Assembly: GCA_964519145.1 (NCBI GenBank) | Contig: CAZFHL010000008.1 | Coordinates: forward strand, 1 to 21,829 | DNA length: 21,829 nt | Direction: 5' to 3' | From: an uncultured Candidatus Saccharibacteria bacterium | GTDB lineage: Bacteria; Patescibacteriota; Minisyncoccia; Phycocordibacterales; WO2-35-19 | In this document: piece after piece, positions 1-19,375 of the stretch | Position numbering within the stretch: the stretch's first letter is position 1 | Layout: each line of letters begins with the position of its first letter | The notes under the pieces: model-generated | Told to the model about the DNA's origin: nothing | Seen by the model: only the letters and a program-made list of their open reading frames with translations | The model's database searches: none | Made by a program: the position numbers and the translations under genes

Positions 1-155
1 ATCACACCTTTTTGAACCACGGATATTTTTTTGCTAAAAAATTCCTGCGAAGCTGTTTCAGTCAAACTCGCTAGGCTTCAAAAAGGTATGATTTCGACGA
101 GTTTTGAAATTTAAGATTATAAAAAGCCACACTTGCGACGACTTTTGAAAGAGGT
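1..155. repeat. Mosaic intergenic repeat, copy A, truncated by the window edge. Contains module M2 with a variable GC core at 47-67 and terminal module M4 ending cgacgacttttgaaa.
   Basis: Near-identical to 11397-11511 (copy B) except for the 21-nt core. Its 3' end cacttgcgacgacttttg is repeated at 2200-2218. The outer inverted repeat acctttttgaa / ttcaaaaaggt encloses the core. Confidence 0.7.
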
Positions 156-4578: not shown

Positions 4579-4606
4579 CAAAAAATTACCGAGAGGTAAT
4601 TTTTTG
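4579..4606 (+). terminator. Intrinsic terminator: aattacc-gagag-ggtaatt followed by TTTTTG
   Basis: 7-bp stem plus T-tract, 22 bp after the DUF378 stop. Confidence 0.6.
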
Positions 4607-4638
4607 TTATAAATTGAGTCTTTTAGAGCCATTTGAGT

Positions 4639-4733
4639 GGTACTAGTATTTATGTGCCTAGCGAGCGCGACTGGCGCTGGCTTCGCAGGAATTTTTCACC
4701 AGAAAAATATCTGTGCACAGAAATACTAGTATC
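4639..4733. repeat. Mosaic repeat, copy E. Module M2 in inverted orientation, enclosed by its own 17-bp inverted repeat tactagtatttatgtgc / gcacagaaatactagta.
   Basis: Reverse complement contains gatatttttctggtgaaaaattcct + 22-nt GC core + tcgctagg. Compare copies A and B. It sits between the convergent DUF378 gene and xth, so it may also act as a bidirectional terminator. Confidence 0.65.
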
Positions 4734-4757
4734 GGAAAAATGGTTTTAAAAAATCTA

Positions 4758-5555
4758 TTATAAATCAATTTCTAAAATAATAGGGCAGTGGTCTGAACCC
4801 ATTACATCTGATAAAATTTTGCTTGATTTTATTTTCTTTTTTAATTTTTCACTAATTATAAAATAGTCTATTCTCCAACCTATATTTCTAGCACGAGAAT
4901 TTGCAAAGTTCGTCCACCAAGAGTAGTACCCTTTTCCCTCTGTAAACATTCTAAAACTATCTAAAAACCCAGCATTTAGTATTTTTTGGAAACCATCTCT
5001 TTCTTCTTTGGTAAATCCATGTTCACCTTCGTTTTGCTTTGGATTGGCAAGATCGTTTTCTGTGTGAGCTACATTTAGGTCTCCACAAAAAATCACAGGC
5101 TTTTCTTTTTCTAACTCTTTTATATATTCTAAAAATGCCGGATCCCAACCACTATGACGAAGGGGGAGTCTAGATAAATCTCCTTTTGAGTTTGGGGTAT
5201 ACACTGTCACTACAAAAAATTTTTCAAACTCTGCTGTTAAAACTCTGCCTTCTTTGTTTGGATTGCCATATTTATCTTTTTCTAAATTATATTTTTGAGC
5301 GATTTTTTCAGGTAAATCAAAAATAACTTTGAGAGGTTTAACTTTGCTCATTATGGCTGTCCCAGAATATCCAGCTTTTTCTGCACAGTTATAATATTCT
5401 TCATAATCTGGCAAGTCTATTTCTATCTGGTGTTTTTGAGCTTTGATTTCTTGAAGACAAACAATATCTGGTTTGTATTTTTCCAAAAATGGTAAAAATA
5501 AACCTTTGTTATTGATGGCTCTTATCCCGTTTACATTAAAAGATACAATTTGCAT
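4758..5555 (-). CDS. xth: Exodeoxyribonuclease III / AP endonuclease (EEP family)
   Basis: MQIVSFNVNGIRA...CLQEIK at the N-terminus, the WRIDY motif and SDHCPI at the C-terminus. 265 aa. Confidence 0.9.
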   Translation of the reverse strand: MQIVSFNVNGIRAINNKGLFLPFLEKYKPDIVCLQEIKAQKHQIEIDLPDYEEYYNCAEKAGYSGTAIMSKVKPLKVIFDLPEKIAQKYNLEKDKYGNPNKEGRVLTAEFEKFFVVTVYTPNSKGDLSRLPLRHSGWDPAFLEYIKELEKEKPVIFCGDLNVAHTENDLANPKQNEGEHGFTKEERDGFQKILNAGFLDSFRMFTEGKGYYSWWTNFANSRARNIGWRIDYFIISEKLKKKIKSSKILSDVMGSDHCPIILEIDL

Positions 5556-5620: not shown

Positions 5621-6135
5621 TTAGGAGCCTTTTTCATTTTCTGATAATTTTACATAATTTTTGATATTTATTAAATAATCATAAAATTCTGAACCCAGTC
5701 TTTTATATAAAGAAGATGCAAATTTTTTATTTGGGAACATTATTTTTTTAAGTTTGTTTTTTGATATTAAATAATCAATTAATTTTTTATAATCACCGTC
5801 TCCTGAAACCAAAATAATTTTATTCAATTTTTCATCTTCTAGTAAGCTTTTCATGATTTCAAAAATAATATCGGTATCAACATTTCCTCTCTTTTTTTTA
5901 ATGTATATTTATTGTGTTCTTTAAATAAAACAATAAAACCAGCTTTTTGTATGTTTTTGTATAGTTCTTCATTTTCTTCTTGTAAGTATCCTAGGAAATA
6001 ATAAGCTTCAGAAACACAATATTTATCCTTTAAATAGATTCTAAATTTTTTTAAATCGATAAACCAATTATCCTGCTTTATCCCAAGGTATAAGTTTTGA
6101 CCATCAATAAAAGCAAAATTGTTTTCTTTTTGCAT
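5621..6135 (-). pseudogene. NYN/LabA-like (PIN-like) nuclease gene split by a frameshift in a homopolymer
   Basis: ORF 5851-6135 carries the N-terminal FIDGQNLY motif. ORF 5621-5854 carries ILVSGDGDY. The -1 frame across the junction reads KKKRGNVDTDIIFEIMKSLL, which is the missing NYN core. Adding one A to the A8 run (T8 at 5892-5899 on the plus strand) restores a single ORF of about 171 aa. Confidence 0.7.
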
Positions 6136-7157: not shown

Positions 7158-9218
7158 ATGGAAATAATCCAAACATTGCTTGGTTATTGGGGTATTTTGG
7201 TAATGGCTAGTATTGCCATTATCTCAATATTCTCATATAAGTTGATATTGCGTCTTTTTGGGATTATCATTGTCCCAGATGACTCAATTGGTCTTGTTGT
7301 CAAGAAATTTGTCTTGTTTGGTAAAAATAAGATATTGCCGGACGGTAAAATTGTTGCTCTTAATGGAGAAGCTGGTATCCAAGCAGATACACTTGCTCCT
7401 GGTCTCCACTTTTTTCTTTGGCCTTGGCAATATGATATTCAAATTACAGGTTTTACTGTTATTCATCCTGGAAAGGTTGGAATAGTTGAGTCTTGTGATG
7501 GCAAACCTCTTCCTGATGGACGTATTTTTGGTTGCGATGTTGCTTGTGATAACTTTCAAGATGTAAGATCATTTCTTCAAAAAGCCGGTGAACGCGGACT
7601 TCAGATGGCTGTTATTCCTCCTGGGACGTGGCGTATCAATACAAATGTTTTCAGTGTAAAAAGTATAGATATGGTCGTTGTTCCTCAAGGCAAGATTGGT
7701 GTTGTCGATGCTCGTGATGGAAATGCATTGCCAAATGGTCGTGTGCTTGGTAGATATGTTGAGTGTGATTCTTTTCAAAATGCCAAGTTGTTTATGGATA
7801 ATGGTGGTGAGCGTGGGCAACAAATGCGCGTCATTCCTCAGGGTCAATATAGGATCAATACACAATTTTTTAATGTAGTTTTGTATGATGTGACTGAAAT
7901 TGCTGATGATAAAATTGGAATTGTGACTATTAAAGACGGTGCTGCGCTTGAAAGAGGTGAGATTGCTGGTAAGTTAATTTCCGGGCATGAAAGCTTTCAG
8001 AATCCCGATGCGTTCGTTAATAATGGCGGTTTTAGAGGTCTTCAAGAAGAGGTTTTGCGTGCCGGTCGTTATTTCTTAAATCCATATTTTGCAAGTATTG
8101 AAATTGTCGATATGGTTAAAGTACCCATTGCTCATGTTGGAGTAGTCATCTCTTATGTTGGTAAAGAAGGTCAGGATGTTACCGGAGATGCGTATAAGCA
8201 TGGAAATTTTGTTTCTGTTGGAGAGAAGGGTGTGTGGGTAAAACCACTTGACCCTGGTAAGTACCCAATTAACCCACATACTCATAAGGTGGAATTGGTT
8301 CCAACAGCTAACATTGTGCTTAATTGGGCAGATGCTAAGACCGAATCACATAAACTTGATGCAAATTTGTCGACAATTACCGTCCGTTCTTCTGATGGTT
8401 TTAAATTCAATTTGGATGTCAGTCAGATTATTCATATTCCATCGCTCGAAGCACCTAAGGTAATTGGTCGTTTTGGATCGGTGGCAAATTTGGTAACTCA
8501 AGTTCTCGAGCCTACTATCGGTAATTATTTTAGAAGAGCAGCACAATCTTCAGATGCTATCTCATTTCTAAATGAGCGTGGTAAGAGGCAAGATGAAGCA
8601 AAATCTTCCATCGCCAAAGCGTTAGAAGAGTATAATGTTGTGGCTGTAGATACTCTTATTGGAGATATTACACCTCCAGAACAATTGATGAAGACGCTTA
8701 CTGAGCGAAAAATTGCTGAACAAGAACGTGTTACTTTTGGAACTCAGATGGAAGCTGAAAATGTTCGTAAAGAATATGCTCAAGCTAAGGCAATGGCTGA
8801 TACACAACCAGAAGTTGTGGCTGCTGAACGAAAGGTTGCGATCGCAGGATTTAATAAGGCTACCGCTATTACAACAGCGGAAGGTGAAGGTGAAGCTACA
8901 AAAATCAAAGCCAGGGCAGGAGCCGAAGCTGCTGTTGTGACAGGTGAGGCTCAAGCTAAGGTTACTATTATGACTGGTGATGCTGAGGCTAGCAAGACCA
9001 AGGCAACTGGTACAGCAGAAGCGAATGTTATCGAAATGAAGACTAAGGCTATGGATCAAGATAAGTATGCTTTGGTTGAAGTTGCGCGAGCTTTAGCTGC
9101 TTCTGGTCAGAAATGGGTACCAGAAATTGTTTCAGGTAATGGAGATAGTTCCAAACAAAATTCTCTCGTGGAAGTTTTGGTTGCACAACTTGTCGCAGCC
9201 AATGTAAATAAAAAGTAG
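7158..9218 (+). CDS. Flotillin-like SPFH/band-7 membrane protein. The N-terminal beta module is repeated five times and the C-terminus is an Ala/Glu-rich coiled coil.
   Basis: GGAGG Shine-Dalgarno about 12 nt upstream of the ATG. An N-terminal TM helix. PGLHFFLWPWQYDI is the hallmark SPFH start. The SPFH core is KLDANLSTITVRSSDGFKFNLDVSQII ... ISFLNERGKRQ ... GDITPPEQL. EA-repeat tail AEGEGEATKIKARAGAEAAVVTGEAQAK. Confidence 0.8.
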   Translation: MEIIQTLLGYWGILVMASIAIISIFSYKLILRLFGIIIVPDDSIGLVVKKFVLFGKNKILPDGKIVALNGEAGIQADTLAPGLHFFLWPWQYDIQITGFTVIHPGKVGIVESCDGKPLPDGRIFGCDVACDNFQDVRSFLQKAGERGLQMAVIPPGTWRINTNVFSVKSIDMVVVPQGKIGVVDARDGNALPNGRVLGRYVECDSFQNAKLFMDNGGERGQQMRVIPQGQYRINTQFFNVVLYDVTEIADDKIGIVTIKDGAALERGEIAGKLISGHESFQNPDAFVNNGGFRGLQEEVLRAGRYFLNPYFASIEIVDMVKVPIAHVGVVISYVGKEGQDVTGDAYKHGNFVSVGEKGVWVKPLDPGKYPINPHTHKVELVPTANIVLNWADAKTESHKLDANLSTITVRSSDGFKFNLDVSQIIHIPSLEAPKVIGRFGSVANLVTQVLEPTIGNYFRRAAQSSDAISFLNERGKRQDEAKSSIAKALEEYNVVAVDTLIGDITPPEQLMKTLTERKIAEQERVTFGTQMEAENVRKEYAQAKAMADTQPEVVAAERKVAIAGFNKATAITTAEGEGEATKIKARAGAEAAVVTGEAQAKVTIMTGDAEASKTKATGTAEANVIEMKTKAMDQDKYALVEVARALAASGQKWVPEIVSGNGDSSKQNSLVEVLVAQLVAANVNKK

Positions 9219-9321: not shown

Positions 9322-10248
9322 TCACTTCTTATTATGAAATTTTTTGTGGATTTCTCTTAAATGCTTGTCTGTGACATGAGTATAAATTTGGGTTGTGCCT
9401 ATATTTGCATGACCTAAAAGGGCTTGAACACTTCTTAAATCAGCTCCATTTGATAGTAGGTCTGTGGCAAACATATGTCGCATGGTATGAGGTGTCACTC
9501 TTTTAGATATACCTGCTTTGATAGCACAGTTTTTTACTATTCTTTCTACTGATCTTTTGGTTAAAGCCAAACTTTTATTTCCATCTTTCTTATTTTTATT
9601 GTTTTTTGAAAATTGTATAAATAATGCATCGTCCAAATCTTTTCTCTTTGATAAATATTCCTTTAAAATTTTTTTTGCATATTCTGATATAAATACTACT
9701 CTTACTTTTCTACCTTTACCTATTACAGAAAGTTCATCTGTGGTTAAATCTATATCTCTTGTAAGAGAACAAAGCTCTGATACACGAAGCCCAGTAGAAA
9801 AAAGTAATTCTAAAATAGCTCTATCTCTCAAAGCAGACACATCATTGCCTTCTGGGGCGTTCAAAAGCCTTTTTAGTTCGGCATTTGTGATCAAATCAAG
9901 AGATTTTTCTGGTATTTTTGCGAGCTCAATTCTCTCTGGTGGCAATGTCTTTATTTCTTGTCTTGCTAGATATTTTAGAAAAGCTCTTATGGCGATAAGA
10001 TAATAATTTTGAGTTTTTTTTGTTAGTGTCCTATCTGAACCAACAATTCCTCTTATTGTTTGTCTATTGAGCCAAAGGCGAAACTCTCTCATGGTCTCGT
10101 TTGTTATGTCTTCTGGTTTTGTGATTTTGATTTGTTCTATAAATACAGTTAAATAATGATTATAATTTTCAATTGTTTTAAGTGATCTGCCTTTTTCTAT
10201 TTCTATATATTCAAGAAATCTTCTTTTTAATTCTGTTAAATCAAACAT
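9322..10248 (-). CDS. Tyrosine site-specific recombinase, XerC/XerD-like
   Basis: C-terminal HTMRHMFATDLLSNGADLRSVQALLGHANIGTTQIYTHV carries the R..H..R..Y catalytic signature. The start is most likely the internal ATG at 10246-10248 (MFDLTELKRRFLEY), not the TTG at 10284 given in the ORF track. Confidence 0.85.
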   Translation of the reverse strand: MFDLTELKRRFLEYIEIEKGRSLKTIENYNHYLTVFIEQIKITKPEDITNETMREFRLWLNRQTIRGIVGSDRTLTKKTQNYYLIAIRAFLKYLARQEIKTLPPERIELAKIPEKSLDLITNAELKRLLNAPEGNDVSALRDRAILELLFSTGLRVSELCSLTRDIDLTTDELSVIGKGRKVRVVFISEYAKKILKEYLSKRKDLDDALFIQFSKNNKNKKDGNKSLALTKRSVERIVKNCAIKAGISKRVTPHTMRHMFATDLLSNGADLRSVQALLGHANIGTTQIYTHVTDKHLREIHKKFHNKK

Positions 10249-10416
10249 ATCATCAATTATACATTTGAAATCTTGATGTCGCAAAATATTTTGATTTATT
10301 TCCTGGTTATTTTACTTAGATTTTTGGTTTATTTTTGTAGTTAGGGGTAGAATTCGGGTACGATATATTGACTTTTTTAATTAAATATTATACCATAATA
10401 AATGGAGGCAAGAAAA

Positions 10417-11355: not shown

Positions 11356-11511
11356 TCCTTCAAAAGTCTTTCTTGTCTTAAATTACAAAACTCTTTCTCA
11401 TCACACCTTTTTGAACCACGGATATTTTTTTGCTAAAAAATTCCTCGAGCTCGCTCCGTCGAGACTCGCTAGGCTTCAAAAAGCTATGATTTCGAAGAGT
11501 TTTGAAAGATG
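11356..11511. repeat. Mosaic repeat, copy B. Full unit of left inverted-repeat module, M2 with a variable core at 11446-11465, and right terminus gagttttgaaag.
   Basis: Aligns base for base with copy A outside the core. The left end ccttcaaaagtctttctt matches copies C and D. It sits between the rpsO stop and the NYN/pilB operon. Confidence 0.75.
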
Positions 11512-11621: not shown

Positions 11622-12146
11622 ATGGCAGTCATTAAACACTCAGAACAGCGTATAGGTGTATTTATTGATACTCAAAATTTGTATCATAGCGCAAAAAATA
11701 TTTATAAGGCAAGGGTAAATTTTGGCAATGTGCTAGAAGACGTAGTAGCGAATCGTATTTTGGTAAGAGCTGTGGCTTATGTGGTGGCTACAGAAGGAGG
11801 TGAAGAGAAAAGTTTTTTTGAAGCTTTAGAAAAGTTTGGTATTGAAACTAAAACAAAAAATTTACAAGTTTTTGCAGGTGGAGCAAAAAAAGGGGATTGG
11901 GATGTTGGACTCGCTATTGATGCAATCAAATTTTCTTCCAAATTAGATGCCGTTATTTTGGTCACAGGAGACGGAGACTTTACACCACTAGTAGAATATT
12001 TAAAATCAAAAGGTTGTCAGGTAGAAATTGCTTCTTTTAGAAAATCATCATCTGCCAAATTGGTGGAGGTGGCAGATGACTTTATAGATTTAGACGAAAA
12101 TCCTAGAAAATATCTGTTACAAAATACAAGAAATAGATCAAAATAA
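11622..12146 (+). CDS. NYN/LabA-like (PIN-like) nuclease-domain protein, intact paralog
   Basis: VFIDTQNLY near the N-terminus and ILVTGDGDF near the C-terminus. 174 aa. Ends 70 bp upstream of pilB. Confidence 0.75.
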   Translation: MAVIKHSEQRIGVFIDTQNLYHSAKNIYKARVNFGNVLEDVVANRILVRAVAYVVATEGGEEKSFFEALEKFGIETKTKNLQVFAGGAKKGDWDVGLAIDAIKFSSKLDAVILVTGDGDFTPLVEYLKSKGCQVEIASFRKSSSAKLVEVADDFIDLDENPRKYLLQNTRNRSK

Positions 12147-19168: not shown

Positions 19169-19375
19169 TATTCCAAAAGTCTTTCTCATTTTCAATTTCA
19201 AAACTCTTTCTCATCACACCTTTTTGAACCACAGATACTATGTATCTCCAAAAAATCTTTTTTAGTATAGTTTTTGCTAGACACGCATAAAAATCTGCTG
19301 ATTTTTTGCTATGCTCGGTTCAGTCAACCTTGCGCAAGTCTATCAAAAACTATACTAAAAAAGATTTTTTGGAAG
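19169..19375. repeat. Mosaic repeat, copy C. Left inverted-repeat module, a palindrome gatac-tat-gtatc, then M3 nested inside ccaaaaaatcttttt / aaaaagattttttgg.
   Basis: 19170-19238 matches 11357-11425 (copy B). 19263-19356 matches 2111-2199 (copy D). Lies between the pilin-like gene and tpiA. Confidence 0.75.

Follow-up and report, generated by a model that had tools for sequence, protein, structure and literature searches.

What kind of sequence keeps its flanks unchanged from copy to copy while the segment between them is replaced? This question is raised by a 21,829-nucleotide (nt) stretch of DNA from an uncultured Candidatus Saccharibacteria bacterium (GenBank contig CAZFHL010000008.1, positions 1 to 21,829 of the forward strand), referred to here at its full length as the window, in which a first-pass annotation made from the sequence alone had described hypervariable GC-rich inserts between invariant flanks and had read them as a programmable segment within a selected folded structure. 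That interpretation was supported in part, because the structure stood and the programmability did not: the hypervariable core is one small helix (P3a/P3b) of a conserved three-armed fold, and it varies by ordinary paired substitutions. The unit that carries this fold recurs in Patescibacteria (candidate phyla radiation, CPR), and the reading that we favour, at slightly better than even confidence, is a dispersed non-autonomous mobile hairpin that acts at the DNA level and is read as folded single-stranded DNA (ssDNA), akin to repetitive extragenic palindromes (REPs), REPINs and miniature inverted-repeat transposable elements (MITEs) or to elements of IS200/IS605 type.

Inserts between invariant flanks

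Searching the window with AAAAATTCCT-N(15-30)-TCGCTAGGC gave exactly three matches, at 37-76 (+), 11436-11474 (+) and 4656-4696 (-), with N20-22 between the flanks, and none of 100 dinucleotide-preserving shuffles of the window gave one (chance expectation 0). The inserts had been quoted correctly as gcgaagctgtttcagtcaaac at 47-67 (copy A), cgagctcgctccgtcgagac at 11446-11465 (copy B) and gcgaagccagcgccagtcgcgc at 4665-4686 (copy E, reverse complement), and with 48-77% G+C they are indeed rich in G+C against a window of about 30%. The outer stem ascribed to each module was also confirmed, being 18 bp with 2-3 mismatches in A and B and 17 bp with 1 mismatch in E, and pairing continues further outward beyond it; each unit is enclosed in an inverted repeat. 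The statement that the inserts differ completely went too far, however. They do differ, but the first 7 nt (GCGAAGC) and the CAGTC loop are common to A and E, and all three inserts have one layout in which the 5' strand of a basal helix is followed by a 4-5 bp helix and a C(N)GTC loop.

A covarying three-armed fold

Related loci are labelled L with a number, and further copies were collected from among the matches listed in a scan of a genome collection (one genome per species, searched with the window's flank-insert-flank pattern) and in a metagenome scan. Each copy is a long hairpin whose conserved tip is a three-way junction of about 55 nt. The parts of copy B, which lies 41 nt past the rpsO stop codon and 117 nt ahead of an NYN gene, are as follows.

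11386-11504, + strand: copy B, complete element (82.2 bits; ssDNA fold z = -6.1 on the + strand and -7.4 on the - strand)
11386-11393/11497-11504, + strand: P0
11394-11399/11491-11496, + strand: basal internal loop, TTTCTC/TTCGAA
11400-11417/11473-11490, + strand: P1 arms
11418-11419, + strand: junction J 'AC'
11420-11444, + strand: P2, with bulged T at 11423 and loop TGCT at 11431-11434
11445, + strand: junction J 'T'
11446-11465, + strand: insert, comprising the P3a 5' strand, the internal loop and P3b (GCTC/GAG(A)C) with loop CGTC
11466-11472, + strand: TCGCTAG, 3' part of the internal loop and P3a 3' strand
11436-11474, + strand: interval first reported, covering the P2 3' strand, J 'T', P3 in full and 2 nt at the start of the P1 3' arm

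The junction dinucleotide J 'AC' was invariant in 80/80 unique canonical cores. It is followed by P2, a 10-bp helix GGA(T)ATTTTT-C/TGCT/G-AAAAATTCC in which the bulged T is conserved and the pair closing the U-N-N-U tetraloop covaries (CG 90 / UA 29), and then by the single-nucleotide junction J 'T' between P2 and P3. P3a has the form N-G-W-G / C-W-A-N (CGWG/CWAG) and contains a conserved G.A pair together with covarying pairs (CG 91 / GC 9 / AU 5; UA 71 / AU 30); a 3x3 internal loop, CTC / TCS, separates it from P3b, a 4-bp helix capped by the C(N)GTC loop (CGTC in 43, CAGTC in 24 and CGGTC in 5 of the 80 unique cores). The reported insert consists of the P3a 5' strand, the internal loop and P3b with its loop; the 3' flank TCGCTAGGC begins with what remains of the internal loop, continues through the 3' strand of P3a and runs into the outer arm over its first pairs. 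Two further repeats listed by the first-pass annotation, 2114-2202 (copy C) and 19267-19355 (copy D), were found to be members of the same family in which P2 has been swapped base pair for base pair, reading GCA(T)AAAAAT/ATTTTTTGC where A, B and E have the canonical helix, with bulge and loop kept.

Below the junction, the P1 arms carry a T-run and one conserved A.C mismatch, and many lineages have a 6x6 basal internal loop, TTTCTY/TTCRAC, about 19 bp from the junction. The mismatch (A or C in the 5' arm, C or A in the 3' arm) borders the T-run on its outer side, 9-15 bp away from the junction, and is kept across subfamilies, for example at 11404/11486 in the window and in L131, L124, L138, L160 and L101; read on the opposite strand it is a G.U wobble. 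Among 102 unique ungapped outer stems of at least 14 bp, the median length was 21 and the maximum 46, and the sequences were mostly locus-specific; 12 of the 102 were perfect, over up to 43 bp. Extra hairpins of 24-90 nt occur in some copies; they sit on the tip of P3b, separate P3a from P3b or precede the 3' arm at the junction (L154:8527-8618, L107:7854-7968, L149:5442-5557, L145:1335-1458 and 7678-7801, L108:2216-2360, L148:9882-10030, L155:5115-5260 and L208:1468-1637), with GCCTGCC-type short repeats present in L148 and L155.

Covariation was scored on the collected copies. On 126 distinct sequences, 91.8% of the cells were paired (P3b 93.5%, P3a about 90%), double-sided changes were present in all 25 of 25 pairs, and the covariation score was 0.477 against 0.129 for shuffles, with 0/500 shuffles reaching the observed value and slid partners scoring at most 0.115. 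The claim of a selected folded structure, as opposed to a decaying repeat, was thus borne out. Because the P3a pairs and the P2 loop-closing pair were not part of the search model, their covariation gives independent support for the fold. RNAalifold on an independent plain MAFFT alignment recovered the outer stem, P2 and P3b, though not P3a. A pairing first assigned to the base of P3, CGA/UCG, was only 64% paired and was dropped in favour of CGWG/CWAG, which is about 90% paired and covaries.

These results bear directly on whether the insert could be a guide-like or bridge-RNA-like sequence specifying a nucleic-acid target, as the difference among three window inserts with identical flanks had suggested. 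The variable nucleotides are both strands of P3b (4 bp) and part of P3a, and they pair with each other; the apical loop is conserved, leaving only 4+4 nt that vary freely. Nor is the segment hypervariable across the family, given that an identical GCGC/GCGC helix occurs in 39/80 (49%) of the unique canonical cores and that the other alleles are compensated (GCTC/GAGC, GCCC/GGGC, GCAC/GTGC, GCCT/AGGC, GGCT/AGCC and more); even the insert of copy B, including its extra bulged A, recurs with 1 substitution in another metagenome (L157/L158). Within the window and 1.74 Mb of related loci, the three inserts matched only other copies of the element. Viral contigs and phage genomes gave no matches either, and among the scanned neighbours of copies there was no gene for IS110, Cas, TnpB or IscB. 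With no variable part left unpaired and with inserts that match only other copies, the segment behaves as a covarying helix, and the programmable reading is effectively refuted.

Family and distribution

The genome-collection scan yielded about 17 true copies among the matches listed, in Saccharibacteria, Kaiserbacteria and other Patescibacteria metagenome-assembled genomes (MAGs), most of its rows being chance matches in Campylobacter coding sequence. Scanning metagenomes with the P2 sequence gave at least 120 loci, mostly from groundwater, peat and sediment. A covariance model (R1) built from 20 copies then returned at least 131 + 50 = 181 matches in the collected Patescibacteria loci at search E-values up to 1 and 0.1, of which about 165 exceed 30 bits, the few lowest-scoring ones probably being noise. 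In the window it gave exactly five matches at 68-82 bits (A 3-92; C 2114-2202; E 4640-4730 (-); B 11402-11490; D 19267-19355), the next best scoring 14 bits, which amounts to 5 copies per 21.8 kb. The window itself is assigned by its PilB to Parcubacteria/Paceibacterota. Carrier loci range in G+C from 0.34 to 0.56, with the window at about 0.30, and an identical core is kept throughout. Neither the phage genomes nor the 2.9 million viral contigs that were searched contained a copy. Against Rfam, the window gave only two tRNAs at the gathering threshold and no family for the element; copy B and L141 searched at E up to 10 gave only hairpin-like matches far below threshold (the best 27 bits against a threshold of 245 bits), and no ribozyme model in Rfam matched.

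The same copy, with the same arms and flanks, was seen at an apparently orthologous Saccharibacteria locus in at least 7 species representatives (L003, L029, L044, L057, L061, L070 and L089), adjoining S1-domain and DNA polymerase III delta' genes, so some copies are old and stably inherited. Five weaker model matches, L003:421-533 (-), L003:1514-1563 (-), L044:5490-5535 (-), L114:1256-1344 (-) and L156:8974-9062 (+), share the P2 hairpin (…GTATTTTTCTGCTGAAAAAT…) and have a different 3' half (…CTGRCCACRCCTC…); judged from their sequences, they may represent a sister family with the same P2 module.

Presence and absence at orthologous sites

Mobility was assessed against relatives whose PilB is 85-94% identical and in which gene order is kept (Xer-like integrase, rpsO, NYN, pilB, pilC, ..., TIM, PGK, HIT). 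The rpsO|NYN spacer, 277 nt long with copy B in the window, measures 23 nt in L225, 56 nt in L221/L222 and 104 nt in L223, and the spacer before TIM, 280 nt with copy D, is 14, 17 and 91 nt in relatives. Conversely, NYN|pilB and PGK|HIT, which hold no copy in the window or in L225/L227, are both occupied in L223/L224, and neither L225 (20 kb) nor L221 (22 kb) has any copy at all. Presence/absence polymorphism at orthologous sites, of the kind by which MITEs are recognised, was therefore observed, and the existence of relatives that lack B and D and have copies elsewhere indicates that the element is mobile. Adjacent or nested copies are also common (L149, L161, L175, L176, L212, and in the window the relics 107-150, 11361-11385 and 19174-19246), and several contigs, including that of the window, start or end within a copy. 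The pilB-pilC spacer of the same gene order is a gene-turnover hotspot: L225:9943-10522 and L226:2497-3076 hold a DUF559/MTES_1575 gene (Vsr-like endonuclease fold) with a small open reading frame (ORF), and in the window their place is taken by genes for a pilin-like and an RNase T-like protein.

Given that a tyrosine recombinase gene lies in the window (9322-10284) and that each copy folds as an imperfect palindrome, in which a base is extrahelical and the terminal structure varies, we considered attC-like sites of an integron or a Xer-type system. Like attC, whose function needs a folded single strand with such features, the element may be read in folded form. However, the recombinase is syntenic in the copy-free relatives L221 and L225 and so looks like a housekeeping Xer; the copies are dispersed among housekeeping genes in both orientations, without cassette arrays; and they have no R''/R' GTTRRRY boxes. 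Whereas attC sites conserve structure and not sequence, occur in cassette arrays and need IntI, this element strongly conserves its sequence and has no linked integrase, which makes an attC identity very improbable.

Origin of the outer arms

The two copies in L223 have a 75-nt centre that is 100% identical and arms of about 19 bp that are unrelated; those in L018 have only TGC-core-GCA in common, each with 17-18 bp arms running directly up to the core; and the identity between L124 and L154 ends at the basal loops, outside which lie different perfect inverted repeats. Some lineages do share arms, which are perfectly complementary over 20-40 bp (A/B and C/D in the window, and a group formed by L107, L120, L132 and L149). 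No solo arms without a core were found in the L107 subfamily.

One locus shows where an arm came from. In L225, the empty homologue of the PGK|HIT site, PGK and HIT overlap by 9 nt. The 3' arm of the L223 copy at this site is made of the last codons and stop of HIT (..NLE*, homologous to ..NLS* in L225), and its 5' arm, just past the changed end of PGK, is an inverted copy of the 3' arm at 17/19 positions. The HIT end has thus been copied in inverted orientation, indicating that this arm arose by inverted duplication of the flank and not from a pre-existing palindrome; at NYN|pilB, neither arm is present at the empty sites. As for target-site duplication, possible direct repeats of 6-7 bp were seen at 2/9 copies of one subfamily and were absent at others, and the duplication at PGK|HIT in L223 is inverted.

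Quasipalindrome mutagenesis is an established process, from which we infer a template-switch origin of the arms. Fold-back template switching at the hairpin, at or after insertion, would duplicate the flank in inverted orientation and so give long locus-specific arms, and the same process would keep the arms complementary. This would explain why arms are locus-specific, why they are frequently perfect and why single-sided changes are nearly absent.

Genomic context and strand

Some 160 ORFs beside the copies (150 neighbours and 10 ORFs between paired copies) belong to diverse housekeeping genes with no recurrent partner, the S1-domain matches among them coming mainly from one orthologous locus. 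Spacers were tandem and co-oriented with the element in 32 cases, tandem and anti-oriented in 17, convergent in 17 and divergent in 16. Element orientation follows the local GC skew by 81:38, and by 14:3 where the skew is strong. Variable spacer sites, nesting, contig breaks and the lack of a gene partner are all properties of a mobile repeat.

A second question was whether the copies are merely intrinsic terminators, or insertions into terminator loops, without mobility of their own, or else a decaying neutral repeat. The copies are intergenic and some outer arms have A-tracts and T-tracts like bidirectional terminators (L223 copy 1, L141, L135), but the 3' T-run is missing in many copies and classical terminators stand right beside some of them (window at about 4580-4606, L132, L149). 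The one in the window, a bidirectional terminator AAAAAATTACC-TCTC-GGTAATTTTTT between copy E and a DUF378 gene, is separate from copy E, so that copy E is not the local terminator. The 16 copies in divergent spacers and the 17 that are antisense in tandem spacers also argue against terminators, as do perfect arms that reach the core without a loop remnant (L018b, L104, L107, L120) and the absence of either arm at the empty sites in L225/L227. Nor is a repeat decaying whose 55-nt core is unchanged across genomes of 30 to 56% G+C. We regard this group of explanations as improbable.

The reading that competes most directly for the same structural evidence is a structured noncoding RNA module that functions at the RNA level, in 3'-end protection or processing, as a protein-sponging RNA or as a small ribozyme, and that became multi-copy by duplication. 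It accommodates the strong multi-helix covarying fold with its conserved junction, bulge, loops and G.A pair; the tolerance of extra hairpins at the P3b tip and the J3/1 junction (L154, L107, L145, L108, L148), which is typical of structured RNAs; the mild 32:17 excess of co-orientation with flanking genes; and the Saccharibacteria copy conserved in at least 7 species. On the opposite strand, moreover, the P3 internal loop becomes tandem G.A/A.G and the conserved P1 mismatch becomes G.U. By contrast, an RNA family of this diversity is normally rich in G.U pairs, and here G.U is enriched in no helix: changes are almost solely double substitutions from one Watson-Crick pair to another, the core has 3 G.U and 12 A.C pairs with 19 transversion mismatches, and the arms outside the one conserved position have 16 G.U and about as many A.C (19). 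Divergent spacers (16) are about as frequent as convergent ones (17), and a third of the tandem cases are antisense. Outside the palindromic unit neither a promoter nor a terminator is conserved, no gene family is associated, insertion sites differ between close relatives, some of which have no copies, and no Rfam model, all ribozyme models included, matches. Which strand would be the RNA is ambiguous, since both fold well as RNA and as ssDNA (z -5 to -7, to -7.4 for copy B). The balance of G.U and A.C was tried as a strand test and dropped, because the 67:16 excess of A.C in the arms is mostly the one conserved mismatch, the ratio elsewhere being 19:16, and it chooses no strand. On this balance we give the RNA reading a limited chance, well short of even. 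DNA-level mobility and an RNA-level function are not mutually exclusive, because REPs also act in mRNA.

Under the favoured reading of a DNA-level mobile hairpin, the conserved unpaired features would be recognised in the folded, single-stranded DNA by a protein, presumably a transposase acting in trans; the basal loops would mark the ends of the mobile unit and may be its cleavage sites; and the helices would need only to pair and so would drift by double substitutions. Several points weigh against it. The conserved part is the tip and not the ends, the reverse of REPINs and MITEs, and so many unpaired features conserved at fixed spacing would fit a protein-binding RNA as well. A host function might explain why at least 7 Saccharibacteria species representatives keep the same copy. 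The fragments of 8-22 kb showed neither a transposase gene, of Y1/HUH or any other type, adjoining a copy nor an autonomous form of the element; Y1_Tnp was neither among the 25 most frequent of 204 families in the 150 neighbours nor in 30 proteins scanned individually. No target-site duplication or consistent target sequence could be defined, the two candidate direct repeats not being reproducible, and the origin of the arms by inverted duplication rests on one well-resolved locus together with the perfect arms. The sample is biased toward the canonical subfamily, since the collection scans were seeded with the P2 sequence, and the orientation counts rest on crude ORF calls.

Comparison with known systems

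Among the analogues named by the first-pass annotation, REP hairpins proved the closest, and the defining features of bridge RNAs and attC sites were absent. REPs and REPINs, which are mobilised by REP-associated tyrosine transposases (RAYTs, TnpA-REP), resemble the element in being high-copy, intergenic, hairpin-forming and non-autonomous, with compensatory changes, with lineage-specific copy number and sites, with clustering and nesting, and with a mobile form presumed to be single-stranded and folded (PMC3116915, PMC3733652, PMC6006769). Compensatory changes occur also in the hairpins of REPINs, which are DNA elements (PMC3116915). REPs are described as imperfect palindromes of 20-40 bp with an unpaired GTAG or CGTC at one end, in a paper whose abstract does not list Patescibacteria among the phyla that it names (PMC3733652). 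The element differs in that REPINs conserve the foot and vary the tip, while here a 55-nt asymmetric three-way junction is conserved at the tip and the arms are largely locus-specific. Its foot is TTTCTY/TTCRAC or of CTCGCTC type with no GTAG/CGTC end tag, CGTC occurring only as the P3b apical loop, and no RAYT gene flanked by copies was found in the 8-22 kb fragments.

Similarly, the ends of IS200/IS605 elements and the ORF-less palindrome-associated transposable elements (PATEs) are imperfect hairpins with an extrahelical T that are recognised in ssDNA, and IS608-type transposases recognise subterminal ssDNA hairpins on the lagging-strand template; these elements also lack terminal inverted repeats and target duplications, have short conserved foot sequences and show an orientation bias relative to the replication-skewed strand (PMC6006769). 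In those systems, however, two unlike simple hairpins at the left and right ends flank the cargo, whereas the element is a single hairpin with a branched tip and no TnpA/TnpB nearby. Bacterial MITEs (Correia/NEMIS, ERIC, RUP, BOX) are likewise small, intergenic and polymorphic in presence and absence, form long hairpins and break assemblies, but they have family-wide terminal inverted repeats and direct target duplications (e.g. TA), unlike the outer arms here, which differ between sister copies and include inverted flank duplications. Bridge RNAs of IS110/IS1111 are also structured nucleic acids tied to mobile DNA; they have two unpaired programmable loops and are encoded beside a recombinase, in contrast to the mutually paired variable positions and the missing recombinase here. 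Taken together, the family lacks features that define REPs (the end tag and a conserved foot) and MITEs (family-wide terminal inverted repeats), and it does not belong with attC sites, bridge and guide RNAs, intrinsic terminators or any Rfam family; in its working it is most like REP/REPIN or IS200/IS605-derived hairpin elements. We found no description of such an element in CPR in the literature.

These differences leave room for a further reading, which we consider rather unlikely, in which the family is a new, Patescibacteria-specific class of mobile hairpin with the junction as its active module. The junction could then serve as substrate for a transposase or recombinase of single strands that has gone unrecognised, or be a catalytic RNA or DNA in its own right, and insertion would make an inverted target duplication by fold-back or hairpin-primed integration.

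Further copies and relics in the window

The remaining copies and relics in the window are the following.

1-109, + strand: copy A, 5' side cut by the contig start (78.3 bits)
1-18, 19-74, 21-45 and 75-92, + strand: copy A P1 5' arm, core, P2 and P1 3' arm
55-58/64-67, + strand: copy A P3b, GTTT/AAAC, with loop CAGTC at 59-63
93-98 and 99-106, + strand: copy A basal loop TTCGAC and P0 3' strand
107-150, + strand: relic 3' half of a C-type hairpin (…CACACTTGCGACGACTTTTGAAA), directly 3' of copy A
2092-2222, + strand: copy C, variant subfamily, arms 2092-2129 / 2185-2222 (69.9 bits)
4604-4768, - strand: copy E, arms 4604-4657 / 4715-4768 (74.8 bits)
11361-11385, + strand: matching 5' half of the C-type relic (CAAAAGTC-TTTCTT-GTCTTAAATTAC), upstream of copy B
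19174-19246, + strand: relic 5' half of A/B type, 84% identical to 11361-11440 up to CCACAGATA
19247-19373, + strand: copy D, subfamily of copy C, P3b GTT/AAC with loop CAGTC (68.1 bits)

The contig starts exactly at the P1 5' arm of copy A, so that a basal loop and P0 of the copy-B type are missing there, and copies at contig ends were also seen in L220, L117, L193, L015 and L203; the repeat seems to break CPR assemblies. The core of copy C is ACGCATAAAAATCTGCTGATTTTTTGCTATGCTCG-TCT-CGGTC-AGA-CTTGCGCAA, and this copy begins 50 nt past tRNA-Arg, ahead of a CCA-adding enzyme gene (the window's tRNAs are tRNA-Pro(TGG) at 677-750 and tRNA-Arg(TCG) at 1970-2042). In copy E, P3b is AGCGC/GCGCT with loop CAGTC, and one arm, in its outer part, runs into the end of an ExoIII-family gene (4758-5555, -), overlapping its final codons and stop. 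Copy D, with arms of 36 nt (19247-19282 / 19338-19373) that are 97% complementary, abuts the relic 19174-19246 in a nested or adjacent insertion. Elsewhere in the window, two neighbouring short ORFs at 5621-6135 (-), of 77 and 94 aa, each correspond to half an NYN domain and probably derive from one NYN gene by a frameshift or a split; the NYN gene at 11622-12146, which follows shortly after copy B, is intact.

Implications

CPR bacteria have tiny, streamlined genomes that are thought to hold little repetitive DNA. The finding of 5 copies in 22 kb, and of one 55-nt core from Saccharibacteria to Parcubacteria at 30-56% G+C, contrasts with this view. What is noteworthy is the combination of a branched tip conserved across the superphylum with arms apparently made by inverted duplication. 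Conservation this strong implies a conserved partner, which may be a transposase or a host protein, and in its arms the element would offer a natural archive of hairpin mutagenesis by inverted duplication (template switching). In genome annotation, it should be masked or modelled, since otherwise its copies will be misreported as small RNAs, terminators or guide RNAs. For the organisms themselves, the element provides a ready marker of strain-level variation and accounts for some of the assembly breaks in CPR MAGs.

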